A stretch of 64,000 bases of DNA from Eledone cirrhosa (taxonomy: Eukaryota). Location: positions 25,110,001 through 25,174,000 of the forward strand of contig OZ024760.1 in the NCBI GenBank assembly GCA_964016885.1, in the 5' to 3' direction. Shown in pieces: positions 3,604 through 58,351 of this stretch. Under the pieces are notes generated by a model. It was not told where the DNA came from, did not search any database, and was given only the letters and a program-made list of their open reading frames with translations. The first letter of the stretch is position 1. Each line of letters opens with the position of its first letter. Position numbers and translations under genes: made by a program.

Positions 3604-3640
3604 TTTCATTTATTAGCCACAAGGGCCGACATGTAGGGGA
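3602..3640 (-). mobile_element. About 40-bp extreme 3' end of a Tx1-like LINE inside (AAT)n
   Basis: Reverse complement reads GGCCCTTGTGGCTAATAAATGAAATC+(ATT)n, matching the Tx1 termini at 2456 and 11401. Confidence 0.7.
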
Positions 3641-3644
3641 TAAT

Positions 3645-3700
<56 letters not shown>

Positions 3701-10393: not shown

Positions 10394-10888
10394 CATTCGA
10401 ACCCGTAACTACAACACCACTTTCTAGCTAACAACCTTCTCTTCTCCCCCACACTACAAGACAATACACTGCTTATCACTATACATGGTAACTCAGTACA
10501 ATTCCTAGATTACTACTACAAAACCAAAAGTTCACTCACCACATATACTTTATCTGTCCCCTCTCTACCTATATATCTCTCTCTACATCCATTACACTCT
10601 CTCTCTCTCTCACCTTTGACCTACCTCCCTCTCAACATCTATGAACTTGACCTCTGGGGCAATAAATAATTCCGACCTCAACTATCTACGCATCTCTCCA
10701 AAAGTAACTAATAAAACCCCTACCATAACATTTTGATTAAGATATCTACAAGCCACTCTCTCCTACTTCTCCAACCCCTGCATATCTTTCCTTCTCTCTC
10801 CATCTTCCCTACTTTTCTCTCTTCCTGTTCCACTCTATCTTCCCCAACAACCCCACTTAAGGGTTTTTACATTGTATATTTACCATTC

Positions 10889-11000
10889 TGCTCTGAGGAA
10901 ACAGTGGTCACAGCATTGGATATTCGAGTTCTGCAAATACTTGTGAATTTGCACGTAGCGGAACTAGGCTGCAGTACCACCGTGGAAACACTTGTAAGCA
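10889..11000 (+). ncRNA. Type I hammerhead ribozyme with a very long stem II, in the PLE pLTR
   Basis: TGCT-CTGAGGA-(GTGGT/ACCAC, CAGC/GCTG, AGTTCTGC/GCGGAACT helices)-GAAA-CACTT-GTA^AGCA. Confidence 0.7.
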
Positions 11001-11192
11001 CACGGAATAAACTACCTTTTTATGATGTCTACCTGTTATTATTCATTCTTTATATACACTCCGGAATACTGAAGGATCAGGAACTAAGTTTCTTGAACAA
11101 TTCTTCCATAACTCGTAGAGTAACCTCTTACCGTACGTCAACCATATCCAGTGTAGTAATTAACCATCACTGCATCTTGGATAATCCTATAC

Positions 11193-11400: not shown

Positions 11401-11403
<3 letters not shown>

Positions 11404-12306
11404 TTCTTTATTAGCCACAAGGGCACAAAAGAAGTGGACAAATACAAATATGGAGTTTACATACAGGTATATGAAAATAAAACTATTAATAAAATAACAA
11501 ATAACAATTGAAATCCCCAATAGGGGGGAGGCGTTACACGGGGGTTGCACACACCCCGAAAAAATGTACAACCCTCATCTCCATGAGAACGAAGAGTGAG
11601 CGCTCCTTTCCTCTCTTTCTCTTTTTCCTCATCCTACAGGCTTATATAGAGAGAAGGCCCAACCACTCGGGCCATCTTTGCCACATTCACTCACCTTTTA
11701 TAAAACTTGCTGGGGTACAGCACCTCTCTCTCCATCCTGCTTCTTCTTCTGAAGTGATATTTGAAAAAAACAAATCAGTTGCTCGCCGGAGAGAAAGGTG
11801 TCTGACCTCAGCCCTTTTAACCTATTTCACCATAGCCATAACACATAAGAAAATCGCTTCTCCCTCGTGTTTGAAGGAAGGTGGCGGTTTGATCATGACA
11901 ATGGACTCGGTGGTTAACTGGATTGGTCCCACCCGCGACAATAGTCGTTCTACATAGGCCCACAGGTCGATAACGCCCGGGCAGTGTACAAATGCGTGCG
12001 TGACGGTTTCCTCGTCGCACACGCATCTAGGACAGATCTTTTTCGAAGGGTCCCTGCCCGGGCGCCCGTGTCTGTAGAGCTTGTCTCGAACTGGTAGAAC
12101 TCCTCGGTAGCACTGCCAGGCCAGGGACCTTTGGAAGTTGACCATTGATCCCGGACGGAAGGTCCTACCGAACAGACTGTACAGTTCGTCCTCCTCAACG
12201 CCTAGAGTTTATCCGAGCGCGTCGTCGCACTTGCTGCGGACTAACCCTCGATAGAATGTCGAAGTGGAGTCTCCACTGATCGCCGGGGCCGTTTGCCAGA
12301 GGACTG
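11401..12306 (-). mobile_element. 5'-truncated Tx1-like LINE 3' fragment between (GA)n and (GATA)n
   Basis: ORF 11822-12145 (FQRSLAWQCYRGVLPVRDKLYRHGRPGRDPSKKICPRC). 3'UTR ends GCCCTTGTGGCTAATAAAGAAA. Confidence 0.9.
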
Positions 12307-12387
<81 letters not shown>

Positions 12388-14995: not shown

Positions 14996-16040
14996 CTGAA
15001 GCAACACCTTCAACAGAGGAAAAAGTTTGGCAACCATCTTGCCCAGATTTATGAGCATGAACAAACAAATATCATTAGAATAGCGACTGATCTGGAGGAG
15101 AGATGGAATAAAGCCTGATATAAATCTCTCACCCAGAGAAATCGGAAGATCCTATTCAATGTTCAAACAAGATTAAAAAATTGACCAATTTACAGAAAAA
15201 GTTGTTCATGGATACTGAGACGTAAAACAGACCATAGAGGGAATAAACCACTCAAAAGCCTGGCATGGAGTTCCGACAAGTTTATGACATCACACCTTGA
15301 GGGATATCTCTATGCAATACAGGAACAAGAACTCCCTACCAAATATCTGCTGCACAAAAGAGGAGGGCCAGCAGATGACAATAAATGTAGGCTATGTAAA
15401 ACAAAGATCGAGGATGTAAGCCACATTGTTGCCAGCTGCGAAAGAATGTCATCTCGTTACTACCTCCCCATGAGACACGATGGGATAGCTAGAACCATCT
15501 GGAACGCACTTCGGAAAACAAAATTAACAACAAACGAGGAAGAATATATTGAGACAGATGGCACTAAGGAATACTGGTGGAACCTGAAAATAAAAACTGC
15601 CACCAAATTAAAGCACAACCGGCCTGATATTGTAGTTTGGGACCACACATTGAAAACGTGTTCTGTTGTGGAGTTCAGCTGCCCAATTGATGTAAACGTT
15701 GTCAGAAAAATACAGGAGAAGGAGGACATCTACGGACATTTGATGAGGAGTTTACAAATCCAGTATCCAAGAAACACCTTTAGCTTCATACCCATCATTA
15801 TTGGAGCTACGGGTTATATACCAACCCGCTTGGACCAAAGTATGACTGAACGTGGATTTGCGGACAAAAAGCGCTGCTCCCTAATTCATAGTCTACAAAT
15901 GGCTGCGATAGCGGGCACCTTCAAAATTTGCAAAAGATTCTTGCGATTCGAGGGATGACAATTTCTTTTCTTTTACAACCTTTCCACCAAGAAGGTGGCC
16001 GGTCCCAAAAATATACTCGAAATTAAGAGAAAGAGATAAC
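14996..16040 (+). mobile_element. R4/Dong-like non-LTR retrotransposon 3' fragment (CCHC finger plus restriction-like endonuclease)
   Basis: ORF 15284-15958: CRLC..EDVSHIVASC, RHD, HNRPDIVVWD..VEFSCP..EK..Y (PD-(D/E)xK type RLE). Confidence 0.85.
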
Positions 16041-20534: not shown

Positions 20535-21160
20535 GCAGCGGATTTGCAGCATCGGTTGGGCGTCGGGCACCATGCTTTGCAGAATAGAGTTACGGCCCTT
20601 TTTGATCTGAGTTCATATGCCGTCCAGGTTTAACTTTGCCTTTCATCCTTACGGGGTCGATAAAATAAAGTACCAGTAATGTACTGGTATAATTGCTGGC
20701 CTTATGCCAAAAGTAGAAATAATTATTTCTTTGTGCGTAGGGTGGTGGATTGAGAGAATCGGTAGATCGTTAGACATTATACTTTGCAGCATAGAGTTAT
20801 GCCGCTTTACGTTCTGAGTTCATATCCCGCCCAGGTTAGCTTTGACTGTTATCCTTGCAGGTCTTTCAAATAAATACCAGTAACTCATGGGGGGGGGGGG
20901 ATTTCATTGAAGTTCCCTCTCCCCTCCAAAAGTTTACTGACATCGTACTTAAATGAGAAACCATTATTTACAGTGGATTGGCAGTATCGGTAGAGGGTCG
21001 GACGCCATGCTTTGACGCATAGAGTGACGGCCCTTGCCATTCTGAGTTCAAATCCCATCGAGGTTAACTTTGCCTTTCATCCTTACGGGGTCGATAAAAT
21101 AAAGTACCAGTAATACACTGGTGAATTGCTGGCCTTGTGCCAAAAGTAGAAACAATTATT
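20535..21160 (+). mobile_element. Three tandem tRNA-derived SINEs (about 20535-20725, 20741-20965, 20972-21160)
   Basis: A/B boxes, central domain and a GGCCTT(G/A)TGCCAAAAGTAGAAA end (degenerate in the middle copy). Confidence 0.9.
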
Positions 21161-22712: not shown

Positions 22713-22729
22713 AATGGAAAAAGATTGGT

Positions 22730-22800
22730 GATCTGTTGGTGTAATGGTAGCACAGTGGTCTGGATAACCAAAGATGTGGGTTCGACTCCCATATACATCA
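22730..22800 (+). tRNA. tRNA-like cloverleaf (pseudo-tRNA, apparent GGA anticodon, short variable loop)
   Basis: Acceptor GATCTGT/ATACATC (one mismatch, one G-U), D arm GTG..CAC with TAATGGTAG, anticodon arm TGGT-CTGGATA-ACCA, T arm GTGGG-TTCGACT-CCCAT. Confidence 0.55.
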
Positions 22801-22959
22801 ATACTCATCTTTTTCCATTTATCTGAGGGTTCTAAACCCCATTATAAGACTGAAATTTCTTTAGTAAAAAAAAATACGGAGAAAGCTATTCTATTTTCTA
22901 ATTTCAACACAGCTCACTGTTTCAAAACATACTTACATATAAATATATATATATATATA

Positions 22960-24251: not shown

Positions 24252-24634
24252 CACACACAGAGAGTGGAAGATAGATAGATAGATATTTTCTTTATCACCA
24301 TTAATTGCACTAGATGACCCAGGTCTCTTTTGCCTTTCCATTCTCGCAGATCGATAAAATAAATATCAGTTACGTAAGGAAAGTACTGAGATCTATATCA
24401 TGTGCTCTTCATGTCATTCCTCATAAAACATACCTGTTTGTACCGTACCTATTTTAAATTACATAAAACCTACCAAGAAGATTCTATAAAAAAAAAAAAA
24501 AAATACAATTAAATAATTCTAAATAAACTAATTTGAAAAGACATCAAACGATGCCTCCACTTGTTAACCCGGTCCAGCTTCATACACAGAAGATTTTACA
24601 TCGGAACATCTAACACAATATAATAATAATATTA

Positions 24635-25815
24635 TAGGAATGTCATAAATTCAGTGAATTCTCGAGCTGTGTCTATTATTAGGTACAGTGCGGGAATTCT
24701 GAAATGGAATGTTGCTGAACAATAAGAAATGAATAGGAAGACTAGAAAGCTATTGACTATCTACAACATGTTCCACAAGAAGAGTGGTGTCGATAGACTC
24801 TACTTAAAGAGATCTGAAGGTGGAAGAAGTCTTATCAGCATAGAGGACTATGTTCAGATGGAGGAAAAACAACCTGCACAAATATGTGACTGACAGTAGG
24901 GAGCCAATGCTCAAAATTGTACTGAACAATAGACCAGAGGATGTACAAGGAGGAAATAACAACAAGGACGAAGAGCAACCTTCATGAAAAATCCCTTCAT
25001 AGTACCTTCTTTAAGAAAACTGAATTTAGAGATCCACAGACATTGAACTAGTTAAAAAGAGGAGACCTTAAAAAAGCTACAGAAGGAACGCTAATGGCTG
25101 CGCAAGAGCAACCCCTCAGAACGAAGTGGGTGAAACGCCATATTGACAAGGAGGAGGCTAGCTCACTGTGTAGGAACTGTGGAGAGAGAGCGAAGAGACT
25201 GTGGCTCACATTGTATCCGAGTGTAAATACCTAGCCCAGACTCACTATAAAGATTGGAGACATGGTGCGATAGGCAGGGTGATCCACTGGCATCTATGCA
25301 TAGTAAACAATTTACCACATTCTGAGAAGTGGTATGAGCATAAGCCAGAGTCGGTGATAGAAAACGATCAGGTGAAGGTGCTATGGGATTTTAGGATACA
25401 GACGGACAAGAAATTAGAACACAATAGGCCTGACCTGGTGGTTTTGGACAAGATAAAACGATCGTGCCTGATTGTAGATGTAGCCTGCTCATTTGACACG
25501 AGAGTGCAAGAAAAGCTGAGGGAGAAATTTAACCGGACTTAAAGTGGGAGTTAAAAAGAATTTGGAACTATCATGAAATCAAGGTCGTCCCGATTGACAT
25601 AGGCGCACTAGGCACTATCTCAAATGTTTCCAAGGATGGTTAAAGAAGATTAGTGCAGCCCCGCTTTTTGGAACACTTCAAAAGCATGCTTGCTTGGAAC
25701 GGCAAAAACCCTCCGATACGTCCTGAATAACTGTGGCTGCAGTTAGCGGCTTGATATTCATTTCAACAAACTTTCCAGTTAAATAACAGCAATGACTGAG
25801 ACTCAAAGAACAATA
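24635..25815 (+). mobile_element. Decayed R4/Dong-like LINE 3' portion, preceded by (AAT)n; second short 3'-end copy at about 25969-26100
   Basis: RKTRKLLT..DRLYLKRSEGGRSL, CRNC..HIVSEC..RHG, KWYEHKP, LWDFRIQTD..HNRPDLVVLD..IVDVAC. Confidence 0.85.
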
Positions 25816-25818: not shown

Positions 25819-27425
25819 TTTTCTTATATAGGAACAAGGCCAGCAATTTTTGGAGGAAGGGAAAGGGGATTAAATCGACCTCAGTGCGTGAGTGGTACTT
25901 TATTTTATCGACCACGTAAGAATGAAAGGCAAAGTTATCCTTGGCCGGATTTGAATTTAGAATGTAATATGCTGGGAACTGCAAGAACACTCCGATACGT
26001 CCTGAATATTTGAGGATGCAGGTAACGGCTTGATATTCATTTGAACAAACTTTCCAATTAAATAACTTCAATGACTAAGACGCAAAGAATGATAATGATA
26101 ATTGTTTCTATTTCTGGCACAAGGCCAGCAGTAATTGCAGTGTATTACTGGTACTTTATTTTATTGACCCCGTAAAGCTGAAAGGGAAAGTTAACCTCAG
26201 CGGGATTTGAACTCAGACCATAAAGGGCCGTAACTCTTTGCTGCAAAGCATGGCGTCCGACCATCTACTGATACTGTCAATCTAAATAATAATTGTTTCT
26301 ACTTTTTGGCACAAGGTCAGCAATTACCCAGTACATTACTGGTACTTTATTTTATCGACCCCGTAAGGCTGAAAGGCAAAGTTAACCTCAGCGGGATTTG
26401 AAATCAAAACATAAAGGGCCGTAACTCTTTGCTTCAAAGCATGGCGTCCGCCCCTAACTGATACTGCCGATCCAAATAATAATGAAGATAACGGTTTCTT
26501 TATTGGCCACAGGGAAACATTACAGAAGAAAAACATTACAGACGGCACAGAACGGTACAGAACGATACAAAGTGGGTTTTGACCGTGTTAAAATGGTTAT
26601 AACAAAAACCATAGAAATGTGTAGTAACAAATTAAACAATTCTAATAAGAAAAATTCTCCTATTGGGGGCTACCTCCGCGGGTCACACAAAAGATCACGG
26701 CCACCCGGACCGCCATGGCAAGTGCCCTCTCTCAGTTCTCCCACTGATAATAATAATACTAATAATAACAATGAGAATAATTGTTTCTAAATTTGGCACA
26801 AGGCCGGCAATGTTGAAGGGTAGTGGAAAATCGATTAAAATCAACCACAGCTCGTTACTGGTACTTTATTATATCGACCGCGTAAGGATGAAAGGCAAAG
26901 TTAACCTCGTCGGGATTTGAACTGAGAACGTAAAGGGATGTAACTATGTGCCGCAATACATGTTTTGCGACGCCCAACCGATGCTACCAATCTACCAATT
27001 TATGATAATAACTGTTTCTACTTTAGGCACAAGGCCAGCAATAACCCAGTGCATTACTGGTACTTTATTTTATTCGACCCCGTAAGGATGAAAGGCAAAG
27101 TCAACCTCGGCGGGATTTGAACTCAGATCGTAAAGGGACGTAACTATGCTGGAAAGCATGGCGTCCGACGCTCTACCGATTCTGCCAATCCACCGCCCTT
27201 ATGATAATAATGATTTCTAATATAGGCACAAGGCCAGAAACTTTGGGGGAGGGAAAGTCGATTAAATCGACTCCAGTGGGTTACTGGTACTTTATTTTAT
27301 CGACCCCACAAGGATGAAAGGCAAAGTTTACCTCGGAAGTATTGGAACACAGACTGTAAAGGGTTGTAACTCTATGCTGCAAAGCATGGTGTCCGTCTCT
27401 CTACGATACTGACAATCCACCACCC
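25819..27425 (-). mobile_element. Head-to-tail array of about 6 tRNA-derived SINEs, interrupted by LINE 3' ends
   Basis: Copies at about 25819-25965, 26101-26284, 26292-26474, 26781-26996, 27011-27198 and 27212-27425, separated by short (AAT)n. Confidence 0.9.
26490..26745 (-). mobile_element. Tx1-like 3'UTR fragment of the (ATT)-associated family
   Basis: TTTCTTTATTGGCCACAGGG terminus and GGCAAGTGCCCTCTC are shared with 2456-2700. Confidence 0.7.
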
Positions 27426-27513: not shown

Positions 27514-28325
27514 GAACTGGCCTACCTGTTCGGGCGGACATTCAGCCCGGGACCCATGGATAACTTCCAGAGGTCCCTGGCCTGGCAGTGCTACCGAGAA
27601 AGGCTCTACAGACACGGGCGCCCGGGTAGGGACCCCTCGAAAAAGATCTGTCCCAGATGCGTGTGCGACGAGGAAACCGTTGCACACGCATTGGTACACT
27701 GCTCGGGCATTGCCGATCTGTGGAGCTATGTCGACCAACTGCTGTCAAGGGTGGAACCGATCCGGTTGACCACCGAGTCTATTGTAACGATCAAAAACGA
27801 AGGAGAGGCGGTGTTTCTGTGCGTAATAGCCATGGCGAAAGAGGTTGTATGGTGGACGCGTCTGAAAAGATGGAGGTCAGACACCTTTCTCTCTGGCCAA
27901 CAACTGGTCTGTTTCTTCCAATATCATTTCGGAAGAAGGATCAGGATGGAGAGAGAGGTGCTGACCCCAGCCGTTTTTATGAAAGATGGGTGAAAGTGGC
28001 GAGAATGGCCCGTGTGAATGTGCCTTCACTCTACCTCAGACTAGAGGTGAGGAAGATGAAAGATCAAGGGAGCACCTCCTCTCTGTGTTCCTGAGGAGAA
28101 GAGTTGCACACTTTTTTCGGGTGGGGGGGGGGGAGAACCCCCAAGGCGCCTCCTCCCTGTTGAGGATTTTGTTATTAAATTTATTTTTGTTATATTTTAT
28201 TTTATTTTTATATCTTGTTATTGCCTCCTCCTTATTGAGGACGTCTTTTTATGTAAACTTCCCCCCATTGTACTTGTCCCACTTGTTAATTCCCTGGTGG
28301 CAAATGAAAAGAAAGTTATCTATCT
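27514..28325 (+). mobile_element. 5'-truncated Tx1-like LINE 3' fragment in short (CTAT)n
   Basis: High similarity to 57471-58303. Confidence 0.92.
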
Positions 28326-28609: not shown

Positions 28610-28611
<2 letters not shown>

Positions 28612-28977
28612 AAGTATCATTTTAGAAGGAGAATCAGAGTGGAGAGAGAGGCATTGTCCCCCAGTAAATTTACTGAAAGGTGGGTGAATGAAGCGAAAAT
28701 GGCTCGAGTGATTGGACCTTCTCTGTTTATAAGCCTGTAGGTTAAAGTAGAGAGCAAAAGGAAGAAGGGAGAAGTTGCACAACACGCTCCTGAAGTTGAA
28801 GGTTGTTCTATCGACGGGGTATTAAACAACTCATTTGTGGCGCCTACCCCCTATTGGGGATTTCGATTGTTAAATTTGTTTGTTTTAATAATATATTTAC
28901 ATAACTGTATGTAAAATCCCCGGCATGTGTCTTTGTTTTGTCCTCTTTTCTTGTGCGCCCTTGTGGCAAATACAGAA

Positions 28978-28980
<3 letters not shown>
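28610..28980 (+). mobile_element. Divergent Tx1-like 3' fragment flanked by (CTAT)n on both sides
   Basis: HFRRRIRVEREALSPSKFTERWV C-terminus; GCCCTTGTGGCAAATACAGAAA terminus. Confidence 0.85.
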
Positions 28981-34345: not shown

Positions 34346-34937
34346 TACCTGGAGTTGCGACCGATAGATAGTATTAGCAACTGGAAAGACCGATTTGACG
34401 AAAGTCGATCGACTAAAAAAGACATCATATAAACATATATAGATATACATATATACATTATATTATATTAAATAAAGTACCAGTAATACACTGGATAATT
34501 TGCTGGCCTTGTGCCCAAAGTAGAAACAATTATATTATATTATATTATATTATATTATATATATATACATCGGTGGATTGGCAGTACCGGCAACCGCTCT
34601 GTATAATAAGTTCCTGATTATTACTAGAATTTTATAAGAATCAAACATTCATAATTTTCAGAAAACAGGTTAAACAAATTAGCTTTGATAAGTACCAAAA
34701 GGTACGAAACAGAACTCTGTCAGCTTTATCTCCCCTGTTTGCTGAAAATTTAAAGTAAGTGAGACTGTCACTACTCTAAAACACTAGCGTAAGGTCTTCG
34801 AAATGCTTTTAATTAAGCATAAGGTGTATTGCAAAATACACTATATATACATTCATATATATATATATATATATATATTTCGTTTCTGAATTTGTTTAGC
34901 AAGATTCTTTATCTGAAAACGTGTGTTGAAACCGATA

Positions 34938-36275: not shown

Positions 36276-36825
36276 GATTACTGTTGTTATCGTTGCTGTT
36301 ATTATTTTTATTGTAAGTTTTAGCAGCAACAGCCACAACAGCCACAGCAATAGCAACAACAATAACAGCAACGGTAGATATATCTAGTGCCATTGGCGCT
36401 AAGGGCTGCATCCCTACTCACCACCATTGGCACAGAGTTGGCTATCCGAAGGTGTGAGATTCACCAGCTGGAATAGCTCCTCCAACGCGATTCCTTAACT
36501 ATCCTCTTGGGTAAACCCCTTCTCTATTCTACTCGCCGGATCCGTGGGGGTCGGCCAGCGCATTGGCCACCATTTTCTCATAAAAGTTAAGATTACTGTT
36601 GTTATTGGTGTTGTTATTATTTTTCATTGTAGGTATTAGCAGCAACAGCAACATCAATAACAGCAGCAATAGAGAAACCTGGTGTCCTTGGTCCTAATGG
36701 CTGCATCCTTACTCACCACCATTGGCACACAGTTGGATACCCGCAGGTATGAGCCTCATGAGCTGGAAGGGCTCGTCCAATGCGTCTCCCTCACTATCCT
36801 CTGGGCTAAACCCCTTCTCTATTCT
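36276..36825 (-). mobile_element. Two diverged tandem copies (about 315 bp period) of a possible RTE-type LINE 3' end
   Basis: The duplication is seen directly (36276 vs 36591). The minus translation RRGLPKR...AALSANGTR only weakly resembles RTE C-termini. Confidence 0.4.
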
Positions 36826-38835
36826 GCTAACCAGCCAATCCACCAGCTTCACATCTTATCCAGCATTCTACCGATACTGCTAAACCACCAGCCTCACATT
36901 TTATCCGGCATTCTACCAATACTGCCAATCCACCTGCTTCACATCTTATCCGGCATTCTACCGATACTGCCTCACATTTTGTCCGGCATTCTACCAATAC
37001 TGCTAATCCACCAGCTTCACATTTTATCCAGCAATCTACCAATACTGCTAATGCACCAGCTTCACATTTTGTCCAGCATTCTACCAATACTGTTAATCCA
37101 CCATCCCCGCATTTTATCCGGCATTCTACCAATCCTGCTAATCCATTGACCTCATTTTATCCGGCATTATACCAATACAGCCAATCCACCAGCTTCACAT
37201 CTTATCCGGCATTCTACCGATATTGCTAATCCACCAGCTTCACATTTTATCCGGTATTCTACCAATATTGCTAATCCACCAGCTTCACATTTTATCCGGC
37301 ATTCTACTAATACTGCTAATCCGCCAGCTTCACATTTTATCCGGCATTCTACCAATACTGCTAAGCCGCCAACTTCACATTTTATCCGGCATTCTACCAA
37401 TACTGCTAATCCGCCAACCTCACATTTTATCTGGCATTCTACCAATACTGCTAATCCGCCAGCTTCACATTTTATCCGGCATTCTACCAATACTGCTAAG
37501 CCGCCAACCTCTCATTTTATCCGGTATTCTACCAATACTGCTAATCCGCCAGCTTCACATTTTATCCGGCATTCTACCAATACTGCTAATCCGCCAGCTT
37601 CACATTTTATCCGGCATTCTACTAATACTGCTAATCCGCCAACCTCACATTTTATCCGGCATTCTACCAATACTGCTAATCCGCCAACCTCACATTTTAT
37701 CCGGCATTCTACCAATACTGCTAAGCCGCCAACTTCACATTTTATCCGGCATTCTACCAATACTGCTAATCCACCAGCTTCACATTTTATCCGGCATTCT
37801 ACCAATATTGCTAATCCACCAGCTTCACATTTTATCCGGCATTCTACCAATAGTGCTAATCCACCAGCTTCACATTTTATCCGGCATTCTACCAATACTG
37901 CTAATCCACCAGCTTCACATTTTATCCGGTATTCTACCAATACTGCTAATGCACCAGCTTCACATTTTGTCCGGCATTCTACCAATACTGTTAATCCACC
38001 ATCCCCGCATTTTATCCGGCATTCTACCAATCCTGCTAATCCATTGACCTCATTTTATCCGGCATTATACCAATACAGCCAATCCACCAGCTTCACATCT
38101 TATCCGGCATTCTACCGATATTGCTAATCCACCAGCCTCACATTTTATCCGGCATTCTACCAATAGTGCTAATCCACCAGCTTCACATTTTATCCGGCAT
38201 TCTACCAATACTGCTAAGCCGCCAACTTCACATTTTATCCGGCATTCTACTAATACTGCTAATCCACCAGCTTCACATTTTATCCGGTATTCTACCAATA
38301 TTGCTAATCCACCAGCTTCACATTTTATCCGGCATTCTACTAATACTGCTAATCCACCGGCTTCACATTTTATCTGGTATTCTACCAATATTGCTAATCC
38401 ACCAGCTTCACATTTTATCCGGCATTCTACTAATACTGCTAATCCACCGGCTTCACATTTTATACGGCATTCTACCAATACTGCTAAGCCACCAGCTTCA
38501 CATCTTATCCGGCATTCTACCGATATTGCTAATCCACCAGCCTCACATTTTATCCGGCATTCTACCAATAGTGCTAATCCACCAGCTTCACATTTTATCC
38601 GGCATTCTACCAATACTGCTAAGCCGCCAACTTCACATTTTATCCGGCATTCTACCAATACTGCTAATCCACCAGCTCACATTTTATCCGGCATTCTACC
38701 AATACTGCTAATCCGCCAGCTTCACATTTTATCCGGCATTCTACCAATACTGCTAATCCGCCAGCTTCACATTTTATCCGGCATTCTACCAATACTGCTA
38801 ATCCATTCACCTCACATGTTGTCCTGTGATCTACC
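36825..38835 (-). repeat. 45-bp minisatellite (about 44 units) derived from the SINE tRNA-like head
   Basis: Unit (minus) GGTGGATTAGCAGTATTGGTAGAATGCCGGATAAAATGTGAAGCT vs SINE head GGTGGATTGGCAGTATCGGTAGAGGGTCGGACGCCATG. Confidence 0.92.
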
Positions 38836-38874
38836 GATGCAGCTACTCCATTAACCATATTACCACTACTAATA

Positions 38875-39080
38875 CTGTTTTCTGATTTAAGCACAAGGTC
38901 AACCATTCTGGGGAAGAGAGACATGACCCCAGTGCGTTTCTGGTACTAAAATTTATCAACCTCCTCAGGATGAACAGGCATTGTTAACAATGGCGGGATT
39001 TGAACTCAGAACGTAAAGGGACTTAACTATATTCCACAAAACTTCTCCCAGGACGCTCTACTGATATTGCCAATCAGCCG
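38875..39080 (-). mobile_element. Diverged tRNA-derived SINE
   Basis: GCACAAGG, CTGGTACT, GGGATTTGAACTCAGAA and GCCAATC motifs. Confidence 0.8.
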
Positions 39081-39212
39081 GCCTCACCACCACTACTAAT
39101 AATAGTTACGGACTTAGACTCAATTGTTTTACCCAGGGTCAGTAAATAGTTTAAGGAAGGGAGAATCCCTTGTATCCACTCCAGTGAATGACTGGTCATT
39201 ATTTAGGCAACC

Positions 39213-39402
39213 CGGCGGTGGATTGGCAGTATCGGTAGAGGGTCGGACGCCATGTTTTCCAGCATAGTTACGTCCCTTTTTGATCTGAGTTCAAATCACG
39301 CCGAGGTTGACTTTGCCTTTCATCCTTACGGGGTCGATAAAATAAAGTACCAGTAATGCACTGTGTAATTGCTGGCCTTGTGCCTAAAGTAGAAACAATT
39401 AT
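39213..39402 (+). mobile_element. tRNA-derived SINE inserted within an older minus-strand SINE (about 39130-39540)
   Basis: Full head-to-tail motifs. Flanked by a similar ATT(T)TA(G)GCAACCCGG sequence (about 39198-39215 and 39399-39416), a possible TSD. Confidence 0.85.
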
Positions 39403-39849
39403 TTTAGCAACCCGGGAAAAATGAAAGGTAAAGTTGAGCCCGGGGCGATTTGAACTGAGAACGTAAAGGGACCTAACTGTACGCCGCAAAGCATTTTGTA
39501 CAACGAGACACTTTACCGATTAAGCTAATTCCCCAGCCCGAAATGTAGTAAATATAGTAATGTTAATACTTAGAGACGATAGGGAGTTTGCGACGAAAGA
39601 TTCTCAAATAACCCGGCTTTACAGCTTTACAGATATTTGTGTGTGAGGGAAGTGACATGGAAAACAACAACATATACAAAAGCAAATGCATGAAGTATTT
39701 CCCAAATATAGAACTGTCAACTTACAGGTTGCATATGAATGAACTACACGAGATACAGTAATACAGGGTCTCCTTCGAAATATGTATACACGGTTTGAAT
39801 GTCGGCTAAAACTATGTTTATATATAAAGACTAACGTATGTCTTGAGAT

Positions 39850-50210: not shown

Positions 50211-50256
<46 letters not shown>

Positions 50257-51800
50257 CCAGCAACTCGGCACGTGGAGGGGCAGACCGATGCCCTCCGATG
50301 GCGTCGTCGGACGCTGGACGGAGGGCCCGGTGAAGTTGCTCGGGGTCTTGTTCGGACCGGACCTCCAGGTGGAGAAAAACTGGGCGGAGGTTACGAACAG
50401 GGTGTTTGCACTGACCCAGAAGTGGGCCCAGTTGCAAACTATCCCTGAAAGGTCGGGCGGAGGTGGCGAACACCTACATAGCGTCCGTCATCTACTACCG
50501 CCTGACCGTAGTGCCCTGCCCAAGGGAAACCCTCACCAAGATGGAGCGCGCGCTCTTCCAATTCCTTTGGAAGAGGCGGGCTCCTATGGTGAGGAGATCC
50601 ATCTGCTGTCAACACCCTTCGAAAGGAGGGCTGGGGATGCCGTGGCTAATGATGCGTAAACACGCATTAAGGCTACGGCACCTCTACGTATTCCTCACCG
50701 GACAACCGGTGTGGGCCTCGTTTGTGAGACGAACCTTTCCCAGACTCGTCTCACTCACCGAGCTGCAATCCTGGGTCAAGCAAAGACCGAGAAAACTGGG
50801 CGCCTGGCACACTGAGTGTGCCCAGGCGCTCACCGCCCTCTGGCAGGCGGATCCGGTTATCAGTGGAGACTCCACCGCAACATTCTATAGAAGGCTGGTA
50901 CGCAGCAGGTGCGACGACGTCCTCGGAGAAGCCCTAGACATGGAGGAGGACGAACTGGCCAGCCTGTTCGGTAGGACATTCAGCCCGGGACCTATGGACA
51001 ACTTCCAGAAGTCCCTGGCCTGGCAGTGCTACCGAGGGGCTTTACCCGTTCGAGAAAGGCTCTACAGACACGGGCGCCCGGGTAGCGACCCCGCCAAAAA
51101 GATCTGTCCCAGATGCGTGTGCGACGAGGAAACCGTTGCACACGCATTGGTACACTGCTCGGGCGTAGCCGATCTGTGGGGCTATGTCGAACAACTGCTG
51201 TCAAGGGCGGGACCGATCCGGTTAACCACCGAGTCTATTGTAATGATCAAGCCGCCTCCCCCCTTCAAAGATGAAGCAGAGGCGGTGTTTCTGTGCGTAA
51301 TAGCCATGGCGAAAGAGGCTGTATGGTGGACGCGTCTGAAAGGTCTGAGGTCAGGCACCTTTCTCTCTGGCCAACAACTGGTCCGTTTCTTCCGATATCA
51401 TTTCGGAAGAAGGATCAGGATGGAGAGAGAGGTGCTGCACCCCAGCCGTTTCTATGAAAGATGGGTGAAAGTGGCGAGAATGGCCCGTGTGAATGGGCCT
51501 TCACTCTACATCAGACTATAGGTGAGGAAGATGAAAGACCAAGGGAGCACCCCTTCTCTGTGCTCCTGAGGAGAAGGGTTGCACACTTTTTTCGGGGGTG
51601 TGTGCGACCCCCCAAGGCGCCTCCTCTCTATTGAGGATTTTGTTATAAATTTTATTTTTTGTTATATCTTATTTTATTTTTATATTTTGTTATTGCCTCC
51701 TCCTTATTGAGGACGCCTTTTTGTGTAAACTCCCCCCTTTGTACTTGTCCCACTTTTGATGCCCTAGTGGCAAATAAAAGAAACATATCTATCTATCTAT
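50257..51800 (+). mobile_element. Young 5'-truncated Tx1-like LINE copy in (CTAT)n
   Basis: Nearly identical to 56781-58303; one extra base near 50428 frameshifts ORF2. Confidence 0.95.
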
Positions 51801-52170
51801 CCCAGCCGTTTTTATGAAAGATGGGTGAAAGTCGCGAGAATGGCCCGTGTGAATGGGCTTTCACTCTACATCAGACTATAGGTAAGGAAGATGAAAGACC
51901 CAGGGAGCACCCCTTCTCTGTGCTCCTGAGAAAAAGGGTTGCACACTTTTTTTCGGGGGTGTGTGCGACCCCCCAAGGCGCCTCCTCTCTATTGAGGACT
52001 TTGTTATAGATTTTATTTTTTGTTATATTTTATTTTATTTTTATATATTGTTATTGCCTCCTCCTTATTGAGGACGCCTTGTTTTGTAAACTCCCCCCCA
52101 TTGTACTTGTCCCGCTTTTGATGCCCTGGTGGCAAATAAAAGAAACATATCTATCTATCTATCTATCTAT
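51801..52170 (+). mobile_element. Tx1-like 3' fragment (about 345 bp) plus (CTAT)n tail
   Basis: Matches 57960-58303. Confidence 0.93.
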
Positions 52171-52171
52171 C

Positions 52172-52551
52172 TGATTCTTTTTTTCAAATACACTTTGGAA
52201 GAAGAATCAGGATGGAGAGAGATGGGCTGTACCCCAGCAACTTTTATGAAAGGTGGGTGAAAGTGGCGACAATGGCCCGAGTGAATGGGCCTTCTCTCTA
52301 TATCAGCTTCTAGGTTGAGGAAAAGGAGGAAGAGAGGAAAGGGGTACTCACTCTTCATACTCCTGGAGATGAGGGTTGCATATTTTTTCGGGGGTATGTG
52401 TTACCCATATGAAATGTTTCCCCCTATTGGGGAAAATCGACTAATTTTTTAAATTGCATTTGTGATAACATTTTACACGTTTTTATTGTATGTAAACTTC
52501 CCCCTTTGTATTTTTCCCCTTATGATGTGCTCTGTGGCTAATAAAGAAACA

Positions 52552-52584
<33 letters not shown>
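52172..52584 (+). mobile_element. Tx1-like 3' fragment of a second subfamily plus (CTAT)n tail
   Basis: The 3'UTR (CTCACTCTTC..GGAGATGAGGGTTG..CCCCTATTGGGG) matches the 11401-11640 copy. Confidence 0.88.
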
Positions 52585-52799
52585 CTGGGATGGACACACG
52601 CGTATAACTTGCTGAGTAAGTTCTGTTTAAATTTCTATAGAAATTCTTGTCTGATAACTTTAATTTTTGTACCATTTTGTAGAGGGACTGCCAGGTCAAA
52701 CTTTGATCTGGTCAGTCTCTCAAAATATTCTACGCCTTTAGGCGAAATAGTTAAACAAAAAAAAAGTTTTTTCTTGTTGAAAAGTCAATATTTTTTTAA

Positions 52800-54578
52800 A
52801 TGGCCGAAGCTTCTTCACCAAAATTCGAAGGAGGAAAGGGGAAGATGAACTTACAGCTTCCCCCTGCCACTGTCACAGTAGCAGAGGTCAAGAAGAAAGG
52901 TCAGCCAGAGGAAGAATTCTCTCCACCTGTTAACCGACAACTTGACGTTGCCATGGTAACAACTCAAAGAACCAGCGGCAACAGCAACAACAACAATGCG
53001 ACGGACGAAAACAACACCAATAACAATAACAACAACAAGACCAATAACGGTGACAACAACAACAATGATAACAACAACACCACCAACGACAACAACAACA
53101 CAAACAAACAAAATTTCTCCTTCGCCGAGACGACAAGGAAAACCCTCGACTATCTGCCAGTAGATATAACAAAAGCGAAGGAGTTACTGGCGGATGCGAA
53201 AAAATATATAGTGTACGGGGAAAATGGTTCATTCACAATCCATTCCCCCCCGGAACTAAAAAGCCAGAGACTCCTAAACACGGTCATGTTTAGGACAATC
53301 TCGAACAAAAGTAAAAAACCAGCTCAACCATCACAGAGCGAGATAGAGCTGGTTTTAAAAGACGTCATGAAGGACATCACCTTCATTCAGAAGGATAGAC
53401 TCTACGGGAGTCTATCCATTCTCATGAAGGACAGGGACACAGCAGTGAAACTGTCCATCAAACCAATCACATCCACCGCATACACCTTCTACCCTACGTA
53501 CATGGGTAGAAGAACACAAAAAATAAAAATCCACACCATCCTGCCGATTATGGACATATGGTGGGTTTTGACAGGTTTTCTGGACCTGGAGGATGACATG
53601 CTGGTGTCCATGGGAAAGGCATCGGGTGACGCGTTCAGTGGAACGAGCCTCGAACTTGTAGTTCAAATGAGGCCCGAAAGGATCGCCCAGATCCCTGAAC
53701 GCGTCATACTGGATGATCTAACCTTCATCAACATTACCGTTGAGGGTAGACGGCCCTCGTGTTACCTCTGCGGAACCAGAGGTCACCTGAGGGCTGTCTG
53801 TCCCCAACTTAATAAGAAAACCCCAATCCTGCCTACACCACCAACAGCTGCACAACCAACACAATCACCACAACTACCACTACAAAAACAACCACCACAG
53901 CTCAAACCAAAACAAAACAATGTCCAACCCATCCCCTCCACTCAAAAAACAAAAACAATTTCCAAAACACCCGTACCGCAAACACAACCCGAAAATATAC
54001 CCCTCCCCTCCAACGCGGAAGATGACCCTAGTTCGTCGTCAGACGAGGAGGAGCACTTCCACACAATCAAAAGAAAAAAAAGAAAACACACCTCAGACAC
54101 ACAAATGAAAAAAAACCCTCCCCAAAACATAACACTGACACCAACACAAAAGAGCTCACAACAGCAAACAAAAAACACCACACAAAAACAAAAACATGCA
54201 TACACATACATAAATACAAGAAACAAAAAACTGTTAAACATTGTGTACAACAACAATCTAATAAAAACACAAGGGCCTAACTTCACCCAGGCAGGGGATT
54301 TCCCCCACCTCAAAATGATTAAGGCCCCACAGGACACCTATAAAACTTTAAAAAACAATTTTAAAGAGGACGTGGGTCCCCCCTGCGTCGGGCCCATTAA
54401 CCGCGTCCTCCTAAAAAACTATCCCACCCCCTCCCCAAACACCCACACAACTCCAAGCTCCCCAACCACACAACACACTGATGCCCCCACACTTCCACAA
54501 ACCACCACCCCACCCAACAACCCATCCCCCACCCTAATGGAAATTGTGCAGCCCGATACCCGGGACGCAGAGAGGTAA
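52800..54578 (+). CDS. LINE ORF1p (gag-like RNA-binding protein) with a CCHC zinc knuckle
   Basis: 592-aa ORF from ATG 52800; CYLCGTRGHLRAVC (CX2CX4HX4C), basic KRKKRK, Asn-rich N-terminus, Pro/Thr/Gln-rich C-terminus. Confidence 0.9.
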   Translation: MAEASSPKFEGGKGKMNLQLPPATVTVAEVKKKGQPEEEFSPPVNRQLDVAMVTTQRTSGNSNNNNATDENNTNNNNNNKTNNGDNNNNDNNNTTNDNNNTNKQNFSFAETTRKTLDYLPVDITKAKELLADAKKYIVYGENGSFTIHSPPELKSQRLLNTVMFRTISNKSKKPAQPSQSEIELVLKDVMKDITFIQKDRLYGSLSILMKDRDTAVKLSIKPITSTAYTFYPTYMGRRTQKIKIHTILPIMDIWWVLTGFLDLEDDMLVSMGKASGDAFSGTSLELVVQMRPERIAQIPERVILDDLTFINITVEGRRPSCYLCGTRGHLRAVCPQLNKKTPILPTPPTAAQPTQSPQLPLQKQPPQLKPKQNNVQPIPSTQKTKTISKTPVPQTQPENIPLPSNAEDDPSSSSDEEEHFHTIKRKKRKHTSDTQMKKNPPQNITLTPTQKSSQQQTKNTTQKQKHAYTYINTRNKKLLNIVYNNNLIKTQGPNFTQAGDFPHLKMIKAPQDTYKTLKNNFKEDVGPPCVGPINRVLLKNYPTPSPNTHTTPSSPTTQHTDAPTLPQTTTPPNNPSPTLMEIVQPDTRDAER

Positions 54579-54602
54579 GTGCCTTTTCTCTTCACCACCA
54601 AC

Positions 54603-57600
54603 ATGGCTATGCTAAGAGTAGGCTGTTTAAATGCGCGTGGCCTGGGCTCAACTTGGAAGCAAGCAATGCTTCTAAATGACCTCAGGTCACAACGTATAGA
54701 TGTGATGGTTATTTGCGAGGCCCGGATCAGCAACGTGCGACAGCTGGCCCCCACCTTTGATGACTTTGAGATGCACGCATCTCTCTGTCAGCCCGGAGGT
54801 GGGGGTGGAGTTGTCGTTCTGCTGCAAAAACATCTGGGTCTCGCAACACAGATAGTACATTTGGACCCGGAGGGTCGACTAGTGGTTCTGGACCTTGGCA
54901 GTGGTAAAGGCGGAGCGTTTAGGTTGGTAGCCGCCTACGGCCCTTTCGGGTCAATGCGGCCGGACTTCTTCCATCGTCTGGAGACTTTTCTAGGGACGTC
55001 CCGCTCCTTGCTATTAGTGGGGGACTGGAATGGTATCCTAGATGCACGCTGGGACTACGTAGGGGCCTGCCCCGATAGAGAGGGGTGTAATAGCCTCAAA
55101 GGGTTAATCGGTCGATTTGACCTGGCCGATAGATATCGACTAGATTTTCCGACTGCGCCAACCTGGACTTGGGCAAATCGTAGCGGATCATCTAGGTCGT
55201 ACCTAGATAGGTTCTTAGTTAGAATTAAGGATAAGGACTTTTTAAGTTGTCCAAAAATGCGCATTGTTGGCTATTCAGACCACAAATTAGTGACCTGCAT
55301 GGTCAACCTTGACAGAACTCATAGACAGGGCCCCGGTTACTGGAAGCTCAACTTGTCCTTGCCGGCAAGTAGAGCCTACAGGAATCGGATTAGTACGTTA
55401 GTTAAGGAACGGTTGACTGGAGCGATCGTCAACAGCAGGTGGTGGGTATCTCTAAAGAGAGAGATTAGAGTAGTCTCGATAGAATTTAGTAAGGTTCTAG
55501 CTGCGGATAGGAATAGGAAGGAAAGGGAGCTAATAGATAGAGTAGAAGAGGCAATTAGAAGCGGCGACGTGGCCAGAGTGCTAGCGTCGAGAACGGCTTT
55601 GAGCCAGTTTTTCGACGCGAAGCACGAAGGCTGCGTTGTCCGAAGTAAAATACGTGCTCTAGGGAACGAGGGGACCAAAGCTGTTAGCTGGGCCCGCGTG
55701 ACAGAGGCCAACAGTGGAACTAAATCCACCATCCGGTCTTTGCGAGACCTGGATGGACGGGCGATTCTTGAGCCTAAGCAGATGTGTGAGGCCTTTCAAA
55801 GGCACTTTGCCCGACTGTTCGGGAGGGGCGGGGAGCCGGTTGGGAACGTGGACTTCGGTCCATACCTCGACGGCCTGCCGCGCCTCTCGGACAGGGAGGC
55901 GAAGTCCTGCGAAGAGCCGATTTCGGCCGCTGAGATAGAGGACGTGCTGAGCCAATGCGGCAAACGCAAATCCCCGGGTCTCGATGGTCTTCCTTACGAA
56001 TTATATCTAGCTATGCCGGACTTGTTCCCCGATCTCCTCGAGGCGGTCTACTGCAACTGGCAACAGAACGGGAGAATTCCCTGTACTGTGACCAAGGGCG
56101 TAGTCACGCTAGTGAGGAAGGACGAGAACAAGGGGGACGAAATAAGTAACTTCAGGCCCATAACACTGCTAAATACAGAGTTACAGATTTTGGCCAAGGT
56201 GCTAGCAAAGAGGTTGGCGCTTGTCGTGGGCAACCTGGTGGGAGATGCGCAGACATGCGCTATCCCGTCCAGGTCCATCCATGACAACCTCCACCTCATG
56301 CGATACATCATAGAGAGGGTTGGGAACGAACCCGGCTTTGGTGGGGCTCTGATCAACTTGGATCAATCTAAGGCGTTCGATAGGGTCGACCATGGTTACC
56401 TGGATGCGGTGCTAGCGGCGGCAGGCTTCGGACCCGTTTTCAGGGGCTGGATCACTGCTATGCACAGCAGCCGCATCTGCTCTAGGGTCAAGGTGAACGG
56501 CTACCTCTCGGAGCCGTTCAAAATCGCGCGGTCCATCCGACAAGGGTGCCCTCTCTCCTCCCTTCTGTATGTGTTGACTCTCGAGCCACTACTGCGGAAG
56601 TTGGAGTTGTTGCAGGGCATCCCTTTGGAACCGGGATTGCGGAAAGCGGTGTCGGCCTACGCCGATGACGTGACAGTAATGGTGTCGACGGCCTCCGAAA
56701 TCGAGGCGGTCGGCACCTTACTGGAGGAGTACGAAAAGTTCACAGGGGCTAAGCTGAACCGGGACAAGTCGATCGGTTTGCAACTCGGCACGTGGAGGGG
56801 CAGACCGATGCCCTCCGATAGCGTCGTCGGACGCTGGACGGAGGGCCCGGTGAAGTTGCTCGGGGTCTGGTTCGGACCGGACCTCCAGGTGGAGAAAAAC
56901 TGGGCGGAGGTCACGAACAGGGTGTTTGCACTGACCCAGAAGTGGGCCAGTTGCAAACTATCCCTGAAAGGCCGGGCGGAGGTGGCGAACACCTACATAG
57001 CGTCCGTCATCTACTACCGCCTGACCGTAGTGCCCTGCCCAAGGGAAACCCTCACCAAGATGGAGCGCGCGCTCTTCCAATTCCTTTGGAAGAGGCGGGC
57101 TCCTATGGTGAGGAGATCCATCTGCTGTCAACACCCTTCGAAAGGAGGGCTGGGGATGCCGTGGCTAGTGATGCGTAAACACGCATTAAGGCTACGGCAC
57201 CTCTACGTATTCCTCACCGGACAACCGGTGTGGGCCTCGTTTGTGAGACGAACCTTTCCCAGACTCGTCTCACTCACCGAGCTGCAATCCTGGGTCAAGC
57301 AAAGACCGAGAAAACTGGGCGCCTGGCACACTGAGTGTGCCCAGGCGCTCACCGCCCTCTGGCAGGCGGATCCGGTTATCAGTGGAGACTCCACCGCAAC
57401 ATTCTATAGAGGGCTGGTACGCAGCAGGTGCGACGACGCCCTCGGAGAAGCCCTAGACATGGAGGAGGACGAACTGGCCAGCCTGTTCGGTAGGACATTC
57501 AGCCCGGGACCTATGGACAACTTCCAGAAGTCCCTGGCCTGGCAGTGCTACCGAGGGGCTTTACCCGTTCGAGAAAGGCTCTACAGACACGGGCGCCCGG

Positions 57601-58040
57601 GTAGGGACCCCGCCAAAAAGATCTGTCCCAGATGCGTGTGCGACGAGGAAACCGTTGCACACGCATTAGTACACTGCTCGGGCGTAGCCGATCTGTGGGG
57701 CTATGTCGAACAACTGCTGTCAAGGGTGGGACCGATCCGGTTGACCACCGAGTCTATTGTAATGATCAAGCCGCCTCCCCCCTTCAAAGATGAAGCAGAG
57801 GCGGTGTTTCTGTGCGTAATAGCCATGGCGAAAGAGGTTGTATGGTGGACGCGTCTGAAAGGACTGAGGTCGGGCACCTTTCTCTCTGGCCAACAACTGG
57901 TCCGTTTCTTCCGATATCATTTCGGAAGAAGGATCAGGATGGAGAGAGAGGTGCTGCACCCCAGCCGTTTCTATGAAAGATGGGTGAAAGTGGCGAGAAT
58001 GGCCCGTGTGAATGGGCCTTCACTCTACATCAGACTATAG
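54603..58040 (+). CDS. LINE ORF2p: AP endonuclease, reverse transcriptase and C-terminal CCHC finger
   Basis: APE: LNARG, E, GDWN, LDR, SDH. RT: KSPGLDG, FRPITLLN, LDQSKAFDRV, RQGCPLS, YADD. Finger: CPRC..ETVAHALVHC. First ATG at 54603. Confidence 0.97.
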   Translation: MAMLRVGCLNARGLGSTWKQAMLLNDLRSQRIDVMVICEARISNVRQLAPTFDDFEMHASLCQPGGGGGVVVLLQKHLGLATQIVHLDPEGRLVVLDLGSGKGGAFRLVAAYGPFGSMRPDFFHRLETFLGTSRSLLLVGDWNGILDARWDYVGACPDREGCNSLKGLIGRFDLADRYRLDFPTAPTWTWANRSGSSRSYLDRFLVRIKDKDFLSCPKMRIVGYSDHKLVTCMVNLDRTHRQGPGYWKLNLSLPASRAYRNRISTLVKERLTGAIVNSRWWVSLKREIRVVSIEFSKVLAADRNRKERELIDRVEEAIRSGDVARVLASRTALSQFFDAKHEGCVVRSKIRALGNEGTKAVSWARVTEANSGTKSTIRSLRDLDGRAILEPKQMCEAFQRHFARLFGRGGEPVGNVDFGPYLDGLPRLSDREAKSCEEPISAAEIEDVLSQCGKRKSPGLDGLPYELYLAMPDLFPDLLEAVYCNWQQNGRIPCTVTKGVVTLVRKDENKGDEISNFRPITLLNTELQILAKVLAKRLALVVGNLVGDAQTCAIPSRSIHDNLHLMRYIIERVGNEPGFGGALINLDQSKAFDRVDHGYLDAVLAAAGFGPVFRGWITAMHSSRICSRVKVNGYLSEPFKIARSIRQGCPLSSLLYVLTLEPLLRKLELLQGIPLEPGLRKAVSAYADDVTVMVSTASEIEAVGTLLEEYEKFTGAKLNRDKSIGLQLGTWRGRPMPSDSVVGRWTEGPVKLLGVWFGPDLQVEKNWAEVTNRVFALTQKWASCKLSLKGRAEVANTYIASVIYYRLTVVPCPRETLTKMERALFQFLWKRRAPMVRRSICCQHPSKGGLGMPWLVMRKHALRLRHLYVFLTGQPVWASFVRRTFPRLVSLTELQSWVKQRPRKLGAWHTECAQALTALWQADPVISGDSTATFYRGLVRSRCDDALGEALDMEEDELASLFGRTFSPGPMDNFQKSLAWQCYRGALPVRERLYRHGRPGRDPAKKICPRCVCDEETVAHALVHCSGVADLWGYVEQLLSRVGPIRLTTESIVMIKPPPPFKDEAEAVFLCVIAMAKEVVWWTRLKGLRSGTFLSGQQLVRFFRYHFGRRIRMEREVLHPSRFYERWVKVARMARVNGPSLYIRL

Positions 58041-58304
58041 GTGAGGAAGATGAAAGACCAAGGGAGCACCCCTTCTCTGTGCTCCTGAGGAGAAGGGTTG
58101 CACACTTTTTTCGGGGGTGTGTGCGACCCCCCAAGGCGCCTCCTCTCTATTGAGGATTTTGTTAAAAATTTTATTTTTTGTTATATCTTATTTTATTTTT
58201 ATATTTTGTTATTGCCTCCTCCTTATTGAGGACGCCTTTTTGTGTAAACTCCCCCCTTTGTACTTGTCCCACTTTTGATGCCCTAGTGGCAAATAAAAGA
58301 AATA

Positions 58305-58351
<47 letters not shown>

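Follow-up and report, generated by a model that had tools for sequence, protein, structure and literature searches.

L1/Tx1-type LINE copies arrayed in a (CTAT)n tract of Eledone cirrhosa, and the case for a microsatellite target

How do four copies of a long interspersed nuclear element (LINE) come to lie on one strand with nothing between them except a tetranucleotide repeat? The question is raised by a stretch of 64,000 nucleotides from Eledone cirrhosa (assembly GCA_964016885.1, contig OZ024760.1, positions 25,110,001 to 25,174,000 of the forward strand), called the window below, in which positions 50241-58351 hold four plus-strand copies (c1 to c4) of an L1/Tx1-type LINE with only (CTAT)n in between. 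From 5' to 3', the perfect CTAT runs that precede, separate and follow these copies have 11, 3, 5, 7 and 11 units. It is likely that the array records four separate insertions, made through target-primed reverse transcription, of an element that seeks (CTAT)n/(ATAG)n, and this LINE lineage very probably targets that repeat.

The array and its repeat junctions

The four array copies are separate insertions, since their 5' starts differ while their 3' motif is common, and since identity to c4 is no more than 95% for c2 and 71% for c3 (Table 1). An initial annotation, made from the letters of the window, had described four elements in the same orientation (1.5, 0.35, 0.38 and 5.7 kb) with (CTAT)n alone between them, and the coordinates and repeat runs agree with this description. 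It had also treated the array as one family, which does not stand: identity is 98.9% between c1 and c4, 94.6% between c2 and c4, 71% between c3 and c4 and 69% between c2 and c3, so that the array copies range from 69 to 99% identical, with differing 5' ends. Copies c1 and c4 show 17-18 differences over about 1526 positions, including a frameshift in c1; with the neutral rate of 0.0036 per million years given in PMC13282606, these would place their separation, very roughly, at 1.5 million years, suggesting that c4 is young but not new.

Whether the repeat preceded the copies or came with them can be read at c1, which is bounded by a target-site duplication (TSD) of 21 bp made of 16 repeat bases and the first bases of c2, the last two bases being also a microhomology with c1. 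As the duplication carries the start of c2, c1 entered an existing CTAT tract ahead of c2, and the order of insertion was c2, then c1. The five bases past the repeat register match the start of c2, an agreement expected by chance about 1 time in 1000, or 1 in 64 if only the three bases that are not also element sequence are counted. All the repeat bases at the 3' end of c1 are accounted for by the duplication; its true length may be below 21 bp if some of these bases are RNA-derived.

Including dispersed copies (A to F), the family numbers 10 copies in the window, 9 of them 5'-truncated, and seven (the array, B, C and D) make up a CTAT group. On the sense strand, CTAT lies 5' of 7/7 of the latter and 3' of 6/7, where the criterion used in PMC4494074 is the flanking of more than 20% of copies by one repeat. 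Four of the 5' CTAT loci are independent (the left end of the array, B, C and D), and a 3'-end profile run on the window found no family 3' end upstream of these four tracts. Strand-positions with eight upstream bases in the CTAT register amount to 391 of 127,984 (0.0031), a background itself inflated by these tracts, whereas the AT register, about 19 times commoner (7,544 strand-positions, 0.059), holds no family 5' junction. Furthermore, 8 of the 10 perfect AGAT-class runs of the window adjoin a family copy. No preferred phase of the 5' junction was detected in the window, 4 of 6 independent junctions ending at CTATCT (probability about 0.15, not significant). The family 3' ends show an AATAAA-like motif, GAAA, two bases and then the repeat, with no poly(A) after any of the 10. 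In all six CTAT-tailed copies, exactly two bases separate GAAA from TATC, across subfamilies as low as 63-70% identical.

Several proposals of the initial annotation can be judged on these junctions. The absence of a poly(A) tail is borne out at 10/10 family 3' ends, and the proposal that CTAT is a real target rather than a mere tail gains from the duplication at c1 and from the CTAT found 5' of all truncated CTAT-group copies; indeed, these 5' flanks, checked in the window, gave CTAT in 7/7, so the outcome expected of a simple tail was not seen. The claim that dispersed copies are flanked by CTAT is upheld for D (13 and 15 units) and for the 5' side of B (19 units), while the flanks of C are weaker than claimed, being short and imperfect (8 perfect CTAT-register bases 5', about 10 3'). 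The idea that each insertion leaves new targets and thereby yields polarized arrays keeps its first half, as the target lies on both sides and the orientation is single; one-way growth over time does not follow, only the arrival of c1 after c2 being fixed. Of the four, c3 diverges most, yet it is placed between the near-identical young c1 and c4 sides of the array, a position that agrees with two-sided growth no less well than with polarized growth.

One further CTAT run, at 24271-24295 on the minus strand, is preceded by the family-like ATAAAGAAA; upstream of it the 3'-end profile found no homology (best E 0.35), and it is possibly an extremely truncated or decayed family copy.

Table 1. Location of the array, of the other family copies and of related features (positions within the window)
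Feature	Positions	Strand	Description
(CTAT)11 tract 5' of array	50212-50256	+	original 5' flank of c2; read from sequence
Left copy of 21-bp TSD of c1	50241-50261	+	exact match to 51786-51806
Copy c1	50262-51785	+	1524 bp, 5'-truncated, 98.9% to c4, one frameshift near 50427
Right copy of 21-bp TSD	51786-51806	+	overlaps start of c2
Copy c2	51801-52147	+	347 bp, 5'-truncated, 94.6% to c4
CTAT spacer c2/c3	52148-52172	+	5 perfect units, CT microhomology with c3
Copy c3	52171-52551	+	381 bp, 5'-truncated, different subfamily: 71% to c4, 78% to copy B
CTAT spacer c3/c4	52552-52584	+	7 perfect units
Copy c4	52585-58304	+	5720 bp, apparently full length, 5' end inferred to within a few bases
ORF1 of c4	52800-54578	+	592 aa, no internal stops
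ORF2 of c4	54603-58040	+	1145 aa, no internal stops: APE, RT, C-terminal CCHC
Predicted RNA hairpin	58279-58291	+	3-4 bp stem, 5-base loop, common to family copies and SINE; predicted, z-scores not significant
(CTAT)11 tract 3' of c4	58305-58351	+	followed by (AT)n
Copy B	11401-12307	-	5'-truncated, 76-78% to c4; 5' flank (CTAT)19 at 12310-12385, 3' flank (CT)n
Copy C	27514-28316	+	5'-truncated, 88% to c4; both flanks CTAT, short and imperfect, with 8 bases in common
Copy D	28610-28980	+	5'-truncated, 66-73% to c4; flanks (CTAT)13 and (CTAT)15
Copy A	2455-3330	-	sister lineage, 66% DNA / 52% protein, (ATT)n on both sides
Copy E	26493-26745	-	sister 3' untranslated region fragment, (ATT)n 5', degenerate (ATT)n 3'; 3'-end profile, E 4e-10
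Copy F	about 3602-3642	-	weakly assigned family 3' end of about 40 bp with an (ATT)n tract on either side; 3'-end profile, E 0.0013
SINE-like repeat, example	3364-3551	-	shares LINE 3' end

The element, its relatives and its occurrence in public data

The two open reading frames (ORFs) of c4 lie 24 bases apart. ORF1 has one CCHC knuckle at amino acids (aa) 321-334, a zf-CCHC Pfam match under the cut-off (E 0.051) and no Transposase_22 match in Pfam. Its region 110-345 resembles ORF1 proteins of the RRM/zf-CCHC kind (type I), the feature scores of its Atlas neighbours (0.90-0.92) being a lead only. Type I ORF1 is associated with Tx1 in non-mammalian animals (PMC5203782); the feature as seen in c4 is not Tx1-exclusive, plant L1s carrying it too. 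ORF2 displays the APE endonuclease residues N10, E39, Y112, D141, N143, D226 and H227, the reverse transcriptase (RT) motif YADD at 686-689 and a C-terminal CCHC at 1008-1025. Pfam returns PF03372, PF00078 and, under the cut-off, PF13966, with no match to an RNase H domain. The top PDB match is human L1 ORF2 protein (ORF2p; aa 8-856, E 7e-48), with R2 at 1e-19, and the APE and RT catalytic motifs of c4 align with those of human L1 ORF2p. Relative to its closest relatives, the RT has a one-codon insertion near residue 621-624. R727Q and R784C are also found in c1, and K528Q was rejected as a private defect of c4, Argonauta P0109 having Q as well. The initial annotation had presented c4 as full length with both ORFs open: the ORFs are indeed free of stops, while c4 is only apparently full length, there being no second long copy with which its 5' end could be compared. 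With its open ORFs and intact catalytic motifs, c4 is a candidate, no more, for present activity.

The nearest named proteins, from Argonauta hians, are 59-65% identical. In a FastTree phylogeny of 99 RT regions (369 columns, rooted on four plant L1s), the c4 RT groups with Argonauta and two other proteins (support 1.0), and 11 further proteins join next (0.997), among animal elements; this set was assembled without curated Tx1, Keno, Kibi, Koshi or vertebrate L1 sequence. The architecture is that of the L1 group (L1 and Tx1), with an N-terminal APE, RT, a C-terminal CCHC, no RNase H, truncated copies and a TSD, and the putative affiliation to Tx1 is based on the type of ORF1 and on the flanking repeats rather than on a tree with curated references. 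A large and diverse sister group (P0005-P0035 and P0162-P0211, from ENA/JGI), at about 40% identity, is nearer than any named non-cephalopod animal protein. In the limpet Patella caerulea, eleven members of the P0264 cluster, a distant relative (28%), have consecutive locus tags (SNE40_003393-003415) on one contig, which suggests a tandem LINE array; P0136, a fragment of 133 aa labelled Escherichia coli on a 404-bp contig and 59% identical to ORF2, is likely animal DNA contamination.

The LINE family is abundant in public runs. Part of the element was found in 20 of 24 listed sequencing runs, from 16 studies, always as contigs; none of the 24 is an RNA run containing the element, which says nothing on expression. 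The contigs of four runs (X1, X4, X6 and X8) were placed, on 53150-58310 only, and number 27,688 for X1 (4,746 at 99% or more), 3,214 for X4, 18 for X6 and 162 for X8, contig depth not being taken as copy number. One X4 contig spans 53150-54665 with five substitutions and thus bridges ORF1 to ORF2, and a loose end of X1 at 57456 (three contigs) continues into a degenerate CTAT repeat and then diverged family sequence. An exact 32-base pattern had no match in JGI metagenome contigs and no relatives were found in viral contigs, while a protein-based metagenome scan, covering 54 of 64 parts, gave at least 80 distant loci, mostly at 24-34% identity, which say nothing on this lineage.

The (ATT)n sister lineage and the SINE-like repeat

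The remaining copies of the window, A, E and F, passed over in the initial annotation, represent a sister lineage, and all three are flanked by (ATT)n 5' and 3'. An unrooted tree of nine 3' ends, from which F was left out, splits A and E from the seven CTAT-group copies at UFBoot 100, and no family copy crosses between the CTAT group and the (ATT)n lineage; this one split does not prove that target and lineage co-evolved. Copies A, E and F all sit inside head-to-tail runs of an abundant repeat of about 190 bp that resembles a short interspersed nuclear element (SINE). This SINE-like repeat occupies 1783-3551, 20540-21160, 26089-27422, 34470-34538 and 38879-39403, where its units often stand head to tail, spaced by (ATT)n-type repeats, and has many copies at 75-92% identity and a repeat tail. 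For the copies at 2100-3800, no RNA-derived head was recognized by Rfam or ARAGORN. A long minisatellite at 36673-38854 has a unit of about 45 bp that matches the SINE-like 5' head over 22-33 bases and is possibly a SINE-head-derived satellite.

The 3' ends of 12 SINE-like copies of the window share the terminal pattern of the 10 LINE ends: a loop of five bases, GAAA at an equal distance from it, then two bases and mostly ATT repeats. These 22 ends have a mean column identity of 71% over 38 columns, the common stretch being short (about 22 bases). As the middle pair of the predicted stem, LINE copies mostly have C-G and SINE copies mostly G-C, with further compensatory changes in copy A. In the hairpin columns, 83% of cells are paired and covariation reaches 0.327, above 500/500 shuffles and all six slid controls, and RNAalifold recovers the same three pairs; the covariation corresponds to about two events, and the structure was read off these very sequences. 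The shared LINE/SINE hairpin is thus suggestive only.

The SINE is likely a partner of the sister LINE lineage, judging from these ends. Dong/R4 is another candidate driver; Dong is however listed for (TAA)n (PMC3812793, PMC4640811), and the SINE tail, read in the sense direction, is ATT, as in the Tx1 sister copies. If real, a hairpin end shared by this LINE and a SINE would be unusual, since the 2012 survey in PMC3472496 found L1-clade tails on no more than three SINEs, from maize/sorghum and a green alga. The pair resembles SINE/LINE pairs of the stringent type (PMC3472496, PMC3747384) in its shared 3' end and perhaps in a small hairpin whose loop is conserved and whose stem shows compensatory changes, and differs from those described there in the shortness of the common stretch, about 22 bases.

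Insertion model, alternatives and known systems

A likely pathway can be proposed for the insertions. ORF2p would bind its own RNA through the 3' end, since no copy carries poly(A), probably by way of the small hairpin followed by GAAA. The APE domain would then place a nick, always in one register, on the (ATAG)n strand, as the two-base GAAA-TATC spacing of 6/6 copies suggests. The nick would prime reverse transcription, possibly aided by pairing of a few bases between RNA and target, and synthesis would usually stop early, as 9/10 family copies are 5'-truncated. Cleavage of the second strand, for which c1 is the single case seen, lies up to about 20 bases away and need not fall in the repeat: at c1 it fell within the first bases of c2, giving a duplication of at most 21 bp. 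The 5' end is joined by a microhomology of 1-3 bases. Either half of the tract would stay available as a target and lengthen by slippage, and, the target being strand-asymmetric, different subfamilies would accumulate in a single orientation. The sister lineage with the common 3' end would use (ATT)n and probably mobilises the SINE. The nick, the recognition of the RNA and the role of APE we infer from Tx1L and related elements, as described in PMC1950540 and PMC4494074.

Several observations weigh against so simple a picture. Copy B combines (CTAT)19 on its 5' side with (CT)n on its 3' side and has no duplication, where a strict CTAT nick with a TSD predicts otherwise, and copy C has a target of no more than about three imperfect units. 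CTAT specificity is not strict family-wide either, given the (ATT)n of the sister copies. The evidence comes from one window, 10 copies, four independent CTAT loci and one informative TSD, and the CTAT motif was picked after the data had been seen. In the public contigs, CTAT appears in 1 of the 24 loose ends listed (of 2028), most of the others looking like diverged family sequence or chance AT-rich matches. Among the at least 80 distant metagenome loci, 0/26 relatives that reach the end of ORF2 have a CTAT tail (two have poly(A)), so the CTAT habit is not general in the wider group. Lastly, the hairpin appears in 6/7 single folds, but folding is no better than in shuffles (z -1.9 to +1.5, seven sequences), and its covariation amounts to the two or so events noted above.

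The determinant of site choice is, on balance, suggested to be mainly the endonuclease. Targeting might also be real but set by the RNA, an alternative that we regard as possible though not probable: a relaxed APE would nick AT-rich DNA, only nicks able to pair with the repeat at the RNA 3' end would be used, and this 3' repeat would be read-through from the flank of the donor, so that another tail would lead to another target. Such a model has been put forward for RTE-clade elements (PMC6007223), and it accommodates the lack of poly(A), the fixed 3' register and the use of different repeats by close sister lineages with one 3' end. A long templated tail is however unnecessary at c1, where the duplication covers the 16 repeat bases of the 3' end; in copy B, CTAT flanks the 5' side only; and the isolated Tx1L endonuclease is specific by itself, nicking its own target almost exclusively (PMC1950540). 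The RNA-set alternative is compatible with the outcome of the pathway proposed above, from which it differs in the nicking step only.

The two other alternatives would remove targeting, or part of the array, from the account. If CTAT were a template-encoded or slippage tail, the 5' tracts would be the tails of neighbours, or copies would simply survive in repeat-rich neutral DNA. Three of the array 5' tracts do lie directly behind the 3' end of another copy, and the window is saturated with microsatellites. This explanation is nevertheless largely refuted, and we give it very little credence, given the four 5' tracts without an upstream family end, the empty 19-fold commoner AT register, the presence of all CTAT tracts on one strand relative to the element and a TSD that shows a tract present beforehand. 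The array, or at least c1, might instead derive from misassembly or from copying at the DNA level, by template switching or by unequal crossing-over of CTAT tracts, as c1 and the 3' 1.5 kb of c4, 6.5 kb apart, share 98.9% identity and as the two-base microhomology and the repeat homology could guide a templated copy. Such an origin is quite unlikely: c2 and c3, at 95% and 71% to c4, have other 5' ends; c1 and c4 differ at 17-18 sites; at 56972, 57168, 57668 and 57872 it is c1, unlike c4, that has the majority letter of run X1; and the final bases of c1 match c2 and c3, not c4. Insertion into a pre-existing (CTAT)n tract stays the preferred explanation.

LINEs that seek simple repeats are already known; what appears to be new here is the target repeat, the host group, the sister lineages with different targets and the likely SINE partner. 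Kibi, on (TC)n, and Koshi, on (TTC)n, are teleost LINEs of the Tx1 clade which, as described in PMC4494074 and PMC3812793, are likewise APE-type members of the L1/Tx1 group with one microsatellite. Compared with these by description only, the target in E. cirrhosa contains A and several subfamilies are stacked in one tract; their pure-pyrimidine type of target is not seen, with (CTAT)n here, (ATT)n in the sister lineage and only copy B touching (CT)n. Crocodilian Tx1 elements on (TTCC)n/(TTTC)n offer another case of tetranucleotide targets that differ among related families (PMC4494074). In the crocodilian Tx1-Mar/SINEU system, a SINE and the Tx1 group share a target, as suspected here, but the link is based on target, age and 5' heads, whereas the present SINE and LINE share their 3' end; tandem insertions that sandwich a TSD are reported for SINEU-3 (PMC4494074). 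Xenopus Tx1L, also of the APE type, and the present element have a betaB6-betaB5 loop in common, which conserved T and S residues anchor (here T188/W189 to S199); the target of Tx1L is a unique site in the Tx1D transposon and its endonuclease specificity has been measured, whereas that of the present element is predicted (PMC1950540). Waldo (ACAY), Mino (AC), Dong (TAA) and Togen (TG) similarly land in simple repeats, which offer safe insertion sites in many copies, but belong to other clades (R1, R4, NeSL-related), and none is listed for GATA/CTAT in the parts of PMC3812793 and PMC4640811 consulted. In Octopus vulgaris, 80 L1-Tx1 consensus families have been reported, 13 of them recently active, with 421 insertions, and the LINE described here is probably among their kin; the sections of PMC13282606 consulted describe no target preference for these families. 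A literature search, outside which lay Repbase/Dfam and the original description of Kibi and Koshi, returned no GATA/CTAT-specific LINE, octopus Tx1 target or Tx1-SINE pair.

In 2013, target choice by microsatellite-targeting APE retrotransposons was called poorly understood (PMC3812793). Close relatives with different repeat targets in one genome, together with one member whose ORFs are intact and a junction from which the spacing of the two cuts can be read, make this choice testable. The likely SINE partner bears on what drives SINEs, which make up about 12% of the O. vulgaris genome (PMC13282606). A broader and rather doubtful proposal is that octopods underwent a radiation of Tx1-type LINEs in which one 3' hairpin was kept and the microsatellite target switched between sisters (CTAT, ATT, perhaps CT), target duplication and seeding making most genomic (GATA)n tracts. 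If this were true, relatives about 60-70% identical in the endonuclease and using different simple repeats would form a natural series for APE specificity. If most GATA tracts were scars of the element, octopod microsatellite markers would be affected. Use as an insertion tool is speculative, as a GATA-repeat target is multicopy and activity only predicted.

The window also holds other features. At 7824-11056, an inverted duplication of 1417 bp (7824-9238 versus 9640-11056, 99.9%) surrounds a GIY-YIG-bearing ORF, resembling a Penelope element with inverted terminal repeat or a twin-primed inversion. The fragments at 15185-15958 and 25174-25542 carry a zinc finger and a restriction-like endonuclease-type motif, and we take them to be probably pieces of an R4/Dong-like LINE; in Pfam they give only zf-RVT, a TcdB_toxin_midC match on the R4-like fragment being under the cut-off (E 0.011) and taken as chance. 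Finally, ARAGORN called one tRNA-Ser(gga)-like gene at 22729-22801.

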